From a virus (lineage: Duplodnaviria > Caudoviricetes): a stretch of DNA of 64,000 nt. Each line of letters opens with the position of its first letter. The first letter of the stretch is position 1. Made by a program: the position numbers and the translations under genes. The stretch is from the IMG/VR virus record IMGVR_UViG_3300031857_000001; one strand, given 5' to 3'. Shown here piece by piece: positions 60,948 through 62,368 of this stretch. The notes under the pieces are model-generated. The model saw only the letters and a program-made list of their open reading frames with translations, did no database searches and was not told the origin of the DNA.

Positions 60948-61439
60948 TTATATGAAGGATTTTCTAAATTCTTCCCATACAAACTCAACTTGAGGATTTA
61001 CAACGTCTGAAAATATTGTCGGTTCATATGGTTTTTTGAGTAATTTCATTCCGGCTTCATCCGGTGTTTTATTGTCCTTTGTTCTGTTACATGAAGAACA
61101 ACAAGTAACAAGATTTAACCAAGTATTTTGTCCACCTCGTGATTTAGGAATAACATGGTCAACAGTTAAATTTCTTTTACTACCACAATAAACACATTGA
61201 TAATCATCCCGCCTAAAAAGTCTATGACGATTAATTTTTAATTTGTGATATCTGAATTTAACATAATTGAAAAGGCGTATAATAAGAGGTCGAACAAATG
61301 ACCTTAAACCTGCCATAATTGGCTGGTCGTGAGACTTTAATATCTCCGCCTTACCCTTATTAACCAAATTAAAACCTTTAAAAACGGTTGTTACGTTAAT
61401 GGGGGTGTAGTCCGAATTTAGTACTAATACCTTTTCCAT
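60948..61439 (-). CDS. HNH endonuclease (McrA-like)
   Basis: VLVLN.DY.P, RD...C.YCG....LT.DHV.P.SRGG...W.NLVTCC..CN..K. Confidence 0.9.
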   Translation of the reverse strand: MEKVLVLNSDYTPINVTTVFKGFNLVNKGKAEILKSHDQPIMAGLRSFVRPLIIRLFNYVKFRYHKLKINRHRLFRRDDYQCVYCGSKRNLTVDHVIPKSRGGQNTWLNLVTCCSSCNRTKDNKTPDEAGMKLLKKPYEPTIFSDVVNPQVEFVWEEFRKSFI

Positions 61440-61557
61440 CTATTTATTCAATATCTCAAATATACAAAATTTTAATCACATAAAAAATAACATGTGAAAA
61501 AATAATTTATTTGGTTATTTGGAAAATGTTCGTATATTTGTGGTGTGAATAACATAT

Positions 61558-61840
61558 GTCTCCGTAGCTCAGTAGGATAGAGCAACAGCCTCAAAGGGGG
61601 CGTCTGATTAGAAATAATCAGATGGAACTTCTCGAATTCGGTGAAACCTTCCGAGTAATGTCGATGGTAATACCGAGCCAAACCTCAGAAATGAGGAAGT
61701 GTGTAGAGACTAAGTGGGAAGCACCTAAACAAATTAAGTTGAAGGTGATGATATAGTCCAGACCACAAACCGAAAGGGTAGTGAAAACTATAGTGGTATG
61801 TCTAAGCTGTGGGCCACAGGTTCGAATCCTGTCGGGGATA
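61558..61840 (+). tRNA. tRNA-Arg(UCU) interrupted by a group I intron; exons 61558-61591 and 61801-61840
   Basis: Spliced cloverleaf: GTCTCCG/CGGGGAT acceptor, D-arm with A20, ACAGC-CT|TCT-AA-GCTGT anticodon arm, ACAGG-TTCGAAT-CCTGT T-arm; CCA not encoded; TATATTTG at 61533. Confidence 0.92.
61592..61800 (+). ncRNA. 209-nt ORF-less group I intron (IC3-like) between tRNA positions 33 and 34
   Basis: 5' exon ends U with U-G in P1 (GCCUC/GGGGC); P2 TCTGATTA-GAAA-TAATCAGA; P4 TTCGGT/ACCGAG; P3 CTTCTC/GGGAAG; P7 GAGACTA/TAGTC; terminal G. Confidence 0.9.
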
Positions 61841-62368
61841 CTGGTAACTCAATTGCTCACCGTGAATTTCGCGGTGGCAATTTGAGCACAGTAACATACA
61901 TTTATCCAATTCATCAATTATTACTTGGTTAAATGAGTATATTTTAAGATGTGATAGAGTAAAATCTTTTTCTTCAGGATTCAAATGGTGGAACTCTAAA
62001 GCTCCAATATATTTATCATATCCACATCTTTCACATTTACCCCCCTTATAATCTACCATTTCTTTTTTCAATTTTCTTTGCCTCTCAATTGTTTGCATAT
62101 TTGTACATTGCTTACAATACACTGATGAATTTTCTTTACCCCTTCTACTATAAAATTCAGAAGTATCACAGTCTTTTTTACATCTAGGACAAAATCTAGT
62201 TTCACCATAAACCTTTTTCCCCATTTGTTTAAAAGGTTTATTTGGAAATTCAACATTATGTTTTTTTGCCCAATATCTCACTGTTGTTAGTCCTTTACCT
62301 GTTTCCTTACTTATTTGGTTTAGAGATAAACCACTATTAATTTTCCCAATTAAAAATTCTTTAGTCAT
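61802..62368 (-). CDS. HNH homing-endonuclease-like protein with HTH and zinc-finger regions
   Basis: CPRC..C, CKQC, KGGKCERCGY...ALEFHH...ELDKC.LLC.NCHREIH; last codons antisense to the tRNA 3' exon; start moved to 62368. Confidence 0.88.
   Translation of the reverse strand: MTKEFLIGKINSGLSLNQISKETGKGLTTVRYWAKKHNVEFPNKPFKQMGKKVYGETRFCPRCKKDCDTSEFYSRRGKENSSVYCKQCTNMQTIERQRKLKKEMVDYKGGKCERCGYDKYIGALEFHHLNPEEKDFTLSHLKIYSFNQVIIDELDKCMLLCSNCHREIHGEQLSYQYPRQDSNLWPTA

Follow-up and report, generated by a model that had tools for sequence, protein, structure and literature searches.

An intron-bearing phage tRNA-Arg(UCU) gene overlapped by a putative mobile HNH endonuclease cassette

The DNA analyzed here is a stretch of 64,000 nucleotides (nt), referred to as the window, from a virus of the Caudoviricetes (Duplodnaviria; IMG/VR virus record IMGVR_UViG_3300031857_000001). 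It contains a tRNA-Arg(UCU) gene that is interrupted by a group I intron and is overlapped at its 3' end, in antisense orientation, by the gene for a free-standing HNH endonuclease, designated HNH2. A second free-standing HNH gene, designated HNH1, is located on the other side of the tRNA gene. Loci of relatives are cited below by L numbers and sequencing runs by X numbers. The main features are the following, with positions counted from the first letter of the window.

61558..61591, plus strand: 5' exon of tRNA-Arg(UCU), ending with U33, found by ARAGORN both in the spliced sequence and when introns were permitted.
61592..61800, plus strand: group I intron (RF00028) of 209 nt, located between U33 and U34, ending with G and devoid of an open reading frame (ORF).
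61801..61840, plus strand: 3' exon of tRNA-Arg(UCU), from U34 to the discriminator base A73, CCA not being encoded.
61802..62368, minus strand: HNH2, free-standing HNH endonuclease gene of 188 amino acids (aa), PHROG 2255, with an alternative ATG at 62395.
61802..61840, no strand assigned: 39-nt overlap of HNH2 and the tRNA gene, in which the HNH2 tail YPRQDSNLWPTA and the TAG codon are antisense to the 3' exon.
61568..62437, no strand assigned: polymorphic segment comprising most of the tRNA gene, the intron, and HNH2, in place of which the empty allele has ~75 nt (an intronless tRNA and a short spacer).

The group I intron was the sole Rfam family found across all 64 kb of the window. The covariance model RF00028, which has a gathering score of 50, matched positions 61582-61782 of the plus strand over its full length (model positions 1-253) with a score of 75.6 bits (E 5.6e-19). 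No tRNA was reported in the window by ARAGORN at its default setting. The intron-allowing setting was needed and returned tRNA-Arg(tct) with an intron of 209 nt. Joining of U61591 to T61801 also produced a sequence recognized by ARAGORN as tRNA-Arg(TCT). The marks of a group I intron are present, since U61591 precedes the 5' splice site, G61800 ends the intron, and the joined exons form a tRNA. A candidate P1 helix, read by eye, pairs GCCU (61588-61591) with GGGC (61598-61601) and places a U.G pair at the splice site. The intron does not contain an endonuclease gene because its longest internal ORF is only 44 aa. It is 93-99% identical to the introns of L224, L201-L204, and L001, and 89% identical to that of L005. 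Introns of this type A are 206-210 nt in length, and those of a type B, present in L211/L212, are 202 nt in length. The Rfam search missed intron copies (L005, L201) that are 89-93% identical to copies passing the threshold, which we take to be an effect of the search filter. The missed copies were identified by ARAGORN and by alignment instead.

Contigs from two RNA libraries (runs X15 and X17) reach only positions 61550-61837, where they are unspliced, and include none of HNH2; these contigs may originate from relatives or from DNA. A 240-nt contig from run X17 consists of 9 nt of the 5' exon and the whole intron (61583-61800) without any difference, followed after position 61800 by 22 unrelated letters in place of the 3' exon (depth of 2.1). 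This contig may represent a chimera of the assembly, the same intron located elsewhere, or an off-pathway RNA product. A group I intron of 202 nt is also present in a tRNA-Leu(UAA) gene of the same lineage (L081, 9920-10209; L083, 1526-1815), and is 74% identical to the tRNA-Arg intron over ~170 nt. This tRNA-Leu(UAA) gene should lie ~1 kb past the end of the window, and its intron is a possible source of the tRNA-Arg intron by transposition between tRNAs.

The HNH2 product matched PHROG 2255 ('HNH endonuclease') with an E-value of 1.9e-38, and seven further HNH-annotated PHROGs. The match to the Pfam HNH family (PF01844) scored 18.1 bits, below the cut-off of 21.4, and the PDB search returned nothing usable, the best sequence match being the HNH motif of McrA (E 0.048). 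A match to a cytochrome in NCBIfam was discarded as spurious. Alignment of 34 sequences showed that H127, H128, N163, H165, H169, and the cysteine pairs C112/C115 and C161/C164 are invariant. HNH2 combines invariant HH, N, and H residues with four CxxC pairs, and these residues and CxxC pairs recur in its 691 homologues. Helix-turn-helix Pfam domains were detected at the N-terminus of some of these homologues. The predicted architecture of HNH2 consists of an N-terminal helix-turn-helix, two CxxC pairs, and an HNH core. The ratio of nonsynonymous to synonymous substitution rates (dN/dS) of the core ranged from 0.06 to 0.19, indicating purifying selection.

Matches to RF00028, Pfam, and PHROG families and the output of ARAGORN agree with a previous description of the locus made from the letters of the DNA alone (the sequence-only reading), which had noticed an ORF-less intron in a tRNA gene and two free-standing HNH genes, one of them divergent on the other side of the tRNA. 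This description was accurate in every detail, including the position of the HNH2 stop codon one nucleotide from the 3' splice site. The last 12 codons of HNH2, which encode the tail YPRQDSNLWPTA, and the TAG codon (61802-61804) are indeed the reverse complement of the 3' exon, the TAG starting one base inside this exon opposite C35-U36-A37. Antisense-tRNA-like C-terminal tails (...DSNL, ...HPPGFKPGA, ...RGIEPL) are found in many of the closest database relatives of HNH2. The depth of the first in-frame stop codon in the tRNA is 40 nt in the window, L224, L205, and L206, 28-29 nt in L001 and L201-L204, and 1 nt in L002-L004. In L211, L005, and L006, HNH2 stops before reaching the tRNA, at a distance of +1 to +16 nt. 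The TAG corresponds in antisense to C35-U36-A37 and hence occurs in every tRNA-Arg(UCU); two HNH subclades end there, also beside intronless tRNAs. Thus, the proximity of the stop codon to the splice site is set by the anticodon and the reading frame, and the intron is irrelevant in this respect. Since the length of the overlap varies from 0 to 40 nt among relatives, the HNH2 tail is dictated by the tRNA sequence and the overlap looks incidental. The idea that the overlap locks gene and tRNA together, which was part of the sequence-only reading, was rejected on the same ground.

Filled and empty alleles were compared at this locus. The closest relative found, L081, is 91% identical to the window over positions 58915-61588 and 84-86% identical beyond position 62438. 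Its alignment to the window proceeds up to 61588, then covers 61798-61842, and resumes from 62438. In L081, an intronless tRNA-Arg(tct) is followed, after ~10 nt, by the ATG codon of the same downstream gene; HNH1 is present and HNH2 is absent. Both types of alleles were obtained from a single lake run (X13). A filled contig matched positions 61532-62467 without any difference. An empty contig was 96% identical to positions 61176-61567 and then jumped to 62438, with ~75 unaligned nucleotides in between, which fits an intronless diverged tRNA and a spacer. A second filled/empty pair consists of L212, which harbors HNH2 and a tRNA with a type B intron, versus L175, L101, and L138, which do not harbor HNH2. 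The intron-bearing tRNA is 95-96% identical and the downstream gene 83-86% identical between L212 and the latter loci, and the ~590-nt HNH2 insertion of L212 is located precisely between the 3' end of the tRNA and the downstream ATG.

The presence of the cassette was associated with replacement of tRNA exons. The T stem is unlike between filled and empty alleles in both pairs. The exons of the window match those of cassette carriers, with 93-97% identity to L001, L201, and L203 over the tRNA and the intron. Identity of the exons to L081 is ~84%, with compensatory differences in the acceptor, anticodon, and T stems. Identity to L081 falls toward the tRNA, from 95-100% through the upstream 560-aa gene to 71-79%. 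Exon replacement and decay of identity are consistent with co-conversion of sequences flanking a cut. The cassette is also better conserved than HNH1, with identities to the window of 86% versus 66% for L001 and 87% versus 73% for L201. As judged from these alleles, HNH2 is a mobile cassette encoding a predicted free-standing homing endonuclease, present or absent at a precise insertion point at tRNA-Arg(UCU).

The association of the HNH2 family with tRNA genes was assessed by a census of 160 loci from viral and metagenome collections, in which the tRNAs were located and 168 HNH2-family ORFs were found. A tRNA was present within ~150 nt of 149 of the 168 ORFs, and 98 of them adjoined tRNA-Arg(tct). 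This neighbor was convergent at the HNH 3' end in 60 of the 98 cases, just upstream on the same strand in 13, and just downstream in ~25. Once the adjacent copies were set aside, tRNA-Arg(tct) accounted for 20 of the 492 other tRNAs of the census loci. Adjacency of the HNH2 family to tRNA-Arg(UCU) is far beyond chance. The partner tRNA-Arg sequences diverge widely in all stems, and more distant branches of the family adjoin tRNA-Asn and other tRNAs.

Additional observations were made in the loci of the census. Other intron-bearing phage tRNAs near HNH2 relatives are tRNA-Phe(GAA) (204 nt), tRNA-Asn(GUU) (231 nt), and tRNA-Leu(UAA) (220 nt), and the coordinates of such tRNAs include L040 2527-2806 (minus strand), L279 675-978, and L277 108-409. 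L250 contains two tandem intron-bearing tRNAs at 1794-2283 (RF00028, 58 and 94 bits), and an intron-like stretch is found near an HNH2 relative in L035 (~5700-6000). Group I introns seem to be a frequent feature of tRNA arrays in these uncultured phages. An HNH2 relative in L239 (448-1441) is flanked by a tRNA-Arg(UCU) gene on either side. The first of these genes, with a type A intron of 206 nt, is located 135 nt upstream on the same strand, and the second, which is intronless, is overlapped over 39 nt by the 3' end of the HNH gene. The arrangement suggests that a cassette arrived with a tRNA copy of its own and came to lie beside the resident one. In L175, an unrelated small HNH-like ORF of 113 aa (3300-3641) terminates 14 nt 5' of the intron-bearing tRNA-Arg, and a tRNA-Ser(UGA) occupies its place in the syntenic locus L101. 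This ORF is a further endonuclease gene that has the tRNA for a neighbor. A transfer-messenger RNA gene (RF00023, 83 bits) is present in L001 at 287-671, ~2.3 kb from the HNH2 cassette.

The intron and HNH2 are separable, as all combinations were found.

Both elements: the window, L224, L201-L204, L001, and L005 (type A intron); L211/L212 (type B intron).
HNH2 only: 49 of the 60 convergent pairs, including L205 and L206.
Intron only: L101, L138, and L175.
Neither element: L081 and the empty X13 contig.

The remaining 11 of the 60 convergent HNH2/tRNA-Arg pairs have an intron. L205 and L206, which contain HNH2 and no intron, belong to the HNH clade of the window and share its downstream gene. 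At least four changes of the intron state are required on the HNH tree. The sequence CCT/TCTAAG is uninterrupted beside HNH2 in L004, L227, L230, L245, and L253, and the enzymes of these carriers are therefore not cutting that sequence alone. Likewise, the intronless state of most HNH2 pairs implies that the intron is not needed for self-immunity of the HNH gene in most lineages.

Enrichment of the two elements together was evaluated by an exact-pattern census of IMG/VR. A first intron pattern of 14 nt gave at least 117 matches, most of them chance matches, and a 22-base pattern was used instead. Five contigs with an intron-bearing tRNA-Arg were retrieved, two of which contained HNH2, and an HNH2 relative was present at none of the 118 intronless cognate tRNA-Arg loci among the matches listed (Fisher p ~0.003 ignoring relatedness). 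The baseline of 118 loci includes tRNAs at prophage borders and the statistics ignore relatedness, so that the enrichment is a hint only. The sequence-only reading had proposed that this HNH enzyme cuts intronless tRNA-Arg alleles and co-converts the intron, an independent distribution of intron and HNH in a survey being a result that would speak against it. Mobility of the cassette, exon replacement, and enriched co-occurrence lend support to the co-conversion component of this proposal. The supposed partnership of the two elements fared less well since they also occur apart, in all four combinations and with the repeated changes of intron state mentioned above.

Based on these comparisons, we infer with slightly better than even confidence that HNH2 encodes a free-standing homing endonuclease whose target is the 3' border of tRNA-Arg(UCU) genes and that the intron is an optional passenger located within co-conversion range. 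Two separable selfish elements would be stacked on one phage tRNA-Arg(UCU) gene. The HNH2 product would cut tRNA-Arg(UCU) loci devoid of the gene near the 3' border, in the T arm, the acceptor strand, or the downstream spacer. Donor-templated repair would then copy the ~600-bp cassette exactly behind the tRNA. This cassette would comprise the nuclease gene, on the opposite strand, and an outward-facing promoter located at its far end and serving the next host gene. Conversion tracts would vary in length, short tracts transferring the HNH gene and the T arm and long tracts replacing the whole tRNA. The intron, which lies 40-250 bp from the insertion point, would be carried in long tracts; it would be spliced from the pre-tRNA, keeping the function of the tRNA, and would be independent of the HNH gene, as would the latter of the intron. 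The overlap would arise from the lack of a stop codon in the cassette itself, the frame reading into the tRNA up to the first stop, which is the TAG opposite C35-U36-A37 in the window. According to this reading, the cost of the cassette would be limited because the intron splices out and the putative promoter serves the gene that has been cut off from the tRNA promoter.

Several observations weigh against an intron that is a mere passenger of a homing HNH2. Recombination with an empty allele that removes the cassette precisely would generate the same pairs of alleles, no nuclease being needed. In addition, the intron is commoner beside HNH2 (11 of the 60 convergent pairs, in at least three lineages) than at the sampled loci, and this enrichment counts against the passenger model because a pure version of it does not obviously predict such a bias. 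The lineages in question are types A and B, both inserted at 33/34, and the intron of L250, apparently inserted at 34/35. The latter, in a tRNA-Arg(UCU) gene at ~1750-2040 (minus strand), is 64-71% identical to types A and B and seems to be a third independent lineage in the same tRNA. The two parts of the cassette also differ in their divergence: in the comparison with L001, L201, and L203, identity is 93-97% for the tRNA and the intron versus 60-68% for HNH2 third codon positions, and it steps down sharply at the tRNA border (61558-61840 versus 61841-62368). Structural constraint alone hardly explains such a young tRNA-intron module because intron types A and B are both maintained despite a difference of 25%. 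Judging from these identities, exchange of the intron-tRNA module seems more recent than that of the HNH gene, so that each part of the cassette has its own history. The identities suggest that the module spreads faster than HNH2, as would be expected if intronless alleles are cut.

In strict collaborative homing, or homing in trans, HNH2 would cut the intronless anticodon arm at or near the intron insertion site, the intron would protect its carrier, and both elements would be copied together. We consider this explanation unlikely for the locus, although it accounts for several facts. The closest relative and the sympatric X13 allele lack both elements together, and the intron is present in all seven distinct loci of the HNH clade nearest to the window (at least 81% identity). 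Intron-bearing tRNA-Arg genes are rare in IMG/VR, and two of the five contigs contain HNH2 versus none of the 118 intronless loci among the matches listed. Three intron lineages reside beside HNH2 relatives, and the intron-tRNA module is far less diverged than neutral sites of HNH2. Furthermore, psbA/F-CphI and T3/T7-like phages provide established examples of the mechanism (PMC3984707, PMC10448857). However, 49 of the 60 convergent pairs are intronless, the junction CCT/TCTAAG is intact in the five HNH2 carriers listed above, and L205 and L206 retain HNH2 without the intron in loci that are syntenic with the window and belong to its clade. HNH2 was gained or lost on an intron-bearing background in the comparison of L212 with L175, L101, and L138, and the HNH gene is always at the 3' end of the tRNA, ~35 nt from the intron site. 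The enrichment itself is calculated without regard to relatedness and against a baseline that includes prophage-border tRNAs. Strict collaborative homing is thus contradicted for much of the wider family, although it would explain the enrichment and the young module in the clade of the window. A bolder reading is considered about as unlikely: the HNH lineage would home on tRNA-Arg(UCU), ORF-less introns would have entered at least three times by breaking its target, and true collaborative homing in an RNA gene would result, the intron-tRNA module sweeping through phages with diverged copies of the nuclease. If true, the proposed path to mobile introns would have been caught before entry of the nuclease gene into the intron, as a live polymorphism in lakes.

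We regard as improbable that HNH2 has been domesticated and is vertically inherited, with a link to the tRNA that serves recombination of the cluster, defense, or counter-defense, the filled and empty alleles resulting from ordinary recombination or deletion. A classical homing gene is expected to decay after fixation, whereas the dN/dS ratios indicate strong purifying selection over a long divergence, and tRNA and HNH gene co-diverge as a linked pair. Repeated horizontal spread, however, likewise maintains selection on homing genes. Domestication is also difficult to reconcile with two independent and precise presence/absence polymorphisms at the same point, with the higher conservation of the cassette relative to the backbone in L001 and L201, and with the patchy distribution of HNH2 among syntenic phages. 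A functional overlap, locking HNH2 to the tRNA or regulating tRNA and nuclease by convergent transcription, appears very improbable. Throughout the family, the HNH gene repeatedly overlaps or nearly abuts the 3' end of the tRNA, but close relatives have overlaps anywhere from 0 to 40 nt, or gaps in L005, L006, and L211, the sequence of the tail is imposed by the tRNA, and the frame is not the same across clades.

Homing at the 3' border of the tRNA, as favored here, has features in common with several known systems. To our knowledge, protein genes are the only genes in which collaborative homing has been described, and both this process and the homing endonucleases of tRNA clusters are known from few cultured phages. 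Collaborative homing involves the ORF-less psbA intron of cyanophage S-PM2 and the free-standing endonuclease F-CphI, DNA-polymerase introns of T3/T7-like phages and free-standing HNH genes, and the terL intron of ICP1 and a T5orf172 gene (PMC3984707, PMC10448857, PMC6083498). As in these systems, an ORF-less intron lies in the vicinity of a free-standing endonuclease gene, close relatives are devoid of both elements, and exons appear to be co-converted. In contrast, the host gene is a tRNA gene rather than a protein gene, most members of the HNH2 family are beside an intronless tRNA, and the two elements also occur apart. Strict collaborative homing is defined by cleavage by the nuclease at the intron insertion site (PMC3984707, PMC10448857), and identity of the two sites is doubtful for HNH2.

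The GIY-YIG enzyme SegB of T4 and the T5 enzymes F-TflI/II/IV are free-standing homing endonucleases encoded in phage tRNA clusters (PMC2330249). SegB recognizes the T-loop motif GGTTCRANTCC of tRNA genes and co-converts the flanking sequences (PMC2330249). HNH2 resembles these enzymes in that its gene is located among tRNA genes and is absent from the homologous tRNA regions of relatives. HNH2 differs from them by its HNH core associated with a helix-turn-helix and zinc ribbons, by its preference for a single tRNA, tRNA-Arg(UCU), and by its constant location on the opposite strand at the 3' end of the tRNA. The T4 and T5 cases do not involve an intron. Bacterial introns of subgroup IC3 are inserted in tRNA anticodon loops, at 34/35 in tRNA-Leu(UAA), 33/34 in tRNA-fMet, and 36/37 in tRNA-Arg(CCU) and tRNA-Ile(CAU), and the tRNA-fMet intron encodes I-Ssp6803I, an endonuclease for the tRNA anticodon region (PMC3984707; bioRxiv 10.1101/2020.01.27.920355). 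The intron of the window is likewise small and interrupts the anticodon loop; a U precedes its 5' splice site, its final base is G, and it is predicted to be self-splicing. In contrast to the bacterial introns, it is inserted at 33/34 of a phage tRNA-Arg(UCU) and has no ORF, the nuclease being encoded outside of both the intron and the tRNA. A relative of HNH2 is encoded by ORF45 (Felix01p088) of Salmonella phage FelixO1, with ~53% identity over the HNH core, in a tRNA array. Relatives of HNH2 are interspersed among the tRNAs of this array, and Felix01p085, a neighboring HNH gene, shares 7 nt with the start of tRNA-Ile. The HNH genes of FelixO1 are co-directional with the tRNAs, which have no intron, whereas HNH2 is antisense.

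Our literature search revealed no study of the targets of the FelixO1 HNH endonucleases, no description of a free-standing endonuclease associated with an intron of a phage tRNA, no nuclease family tied to tRNA-Arg(UCU), and no cassette located at the 3' end of a tRNA and bearing an outward-facing promoter. The locus brings together the themes of homing endonucleases in tRNA clusters and of collaborative homing at one tRNA gene, and draws attention to a large, unstudied family of HNH enzymes that strongly favors a single tRNA species. The four types of alleles found among related freshwater phages, with filled and empty alleles in one lake sample, provide natural controls.

The features flanking the polymorphic segment are the following.

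60948..61439, minus strand: HNH1, HNH_5-type endonuclease gene of 163 aa, divergent from the tRNA gene and upstream of it.
61533..61540, plus strand: motif TATATTTG (TAnnTTTG), 17 nt 5' of the tRNA start, read from the sequence.
62426..62433, plus strand: motif TATATTTG at the far end of the cassette, separated by 4 nt (62434-62437) from the ATG at 62438.
62438..62815, plus strand: downstream gene encoding a small secreted or lipoprotein-like protein, flanking the cassette and also present in L081, L203, L205, and L206.

The HNH1 product matched Pfam HNH_5 (2.5e-16) and PHROG 16726 (4.7e-40). Its amino acid identity was 92% in L224 and in L081, which has neither the intron nor HNH2, 74% in L201/L202, and 55% in L001/L205. 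From its distribution, HNH1 is judged to be a stable backbone gene of the lineage, lying outside of the polymorphic cassette. It was rejected as a driver of the polymorphism because it is found in filled and empty alleles alike.

The TAnnTTTG motif TATATTTG is presumably a -7 promoter element of the Bacteroidota type, an assignment that is putative. A scan for sigma-70 promoters, which does not cover Bacteroidota promoters, detected sites that were no more numerous than in shuffled sequence. The independent cassette of L212 (reverse complement, ~3075-3092) has the same layout, with TAnnTTTG 4-5 nt before the downstream ATG. In empty alleles, the downstream gene is directly 3' of the tRNA. The position of the motif suggests that the outward-facing element offsets the polar effect of the cassette and that the downstream gene has a leaderless mRNA. 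TAnnTTTG motifs precede genes of the window, and metagenome runs from lakes and freshwater contain the stretch. The window appears to be a portion of the genome of a very large phage whose hosts are freshwater Bacteroidota. Comparison of 24 kb with cultured phages by megablast returned one distant match only.

Two minor observations concern the surroundings of the locus. Positions 60837-60947 weakly match the Bacteroides small RNA family BTnc231 (28 bits versus a gathering score of 80; E 0.003). This match overlies the terminator hairpin common to the converging 560-aa gene and HNH1, and is probably merely that hairpin. Positions 63050-63718 contain an ORF for a lipoprotein-like product whose C-terminal HExxH region matches peptidase family M54 (archaemetzincin-like, 1.9e-08), which is unusual for a phage.

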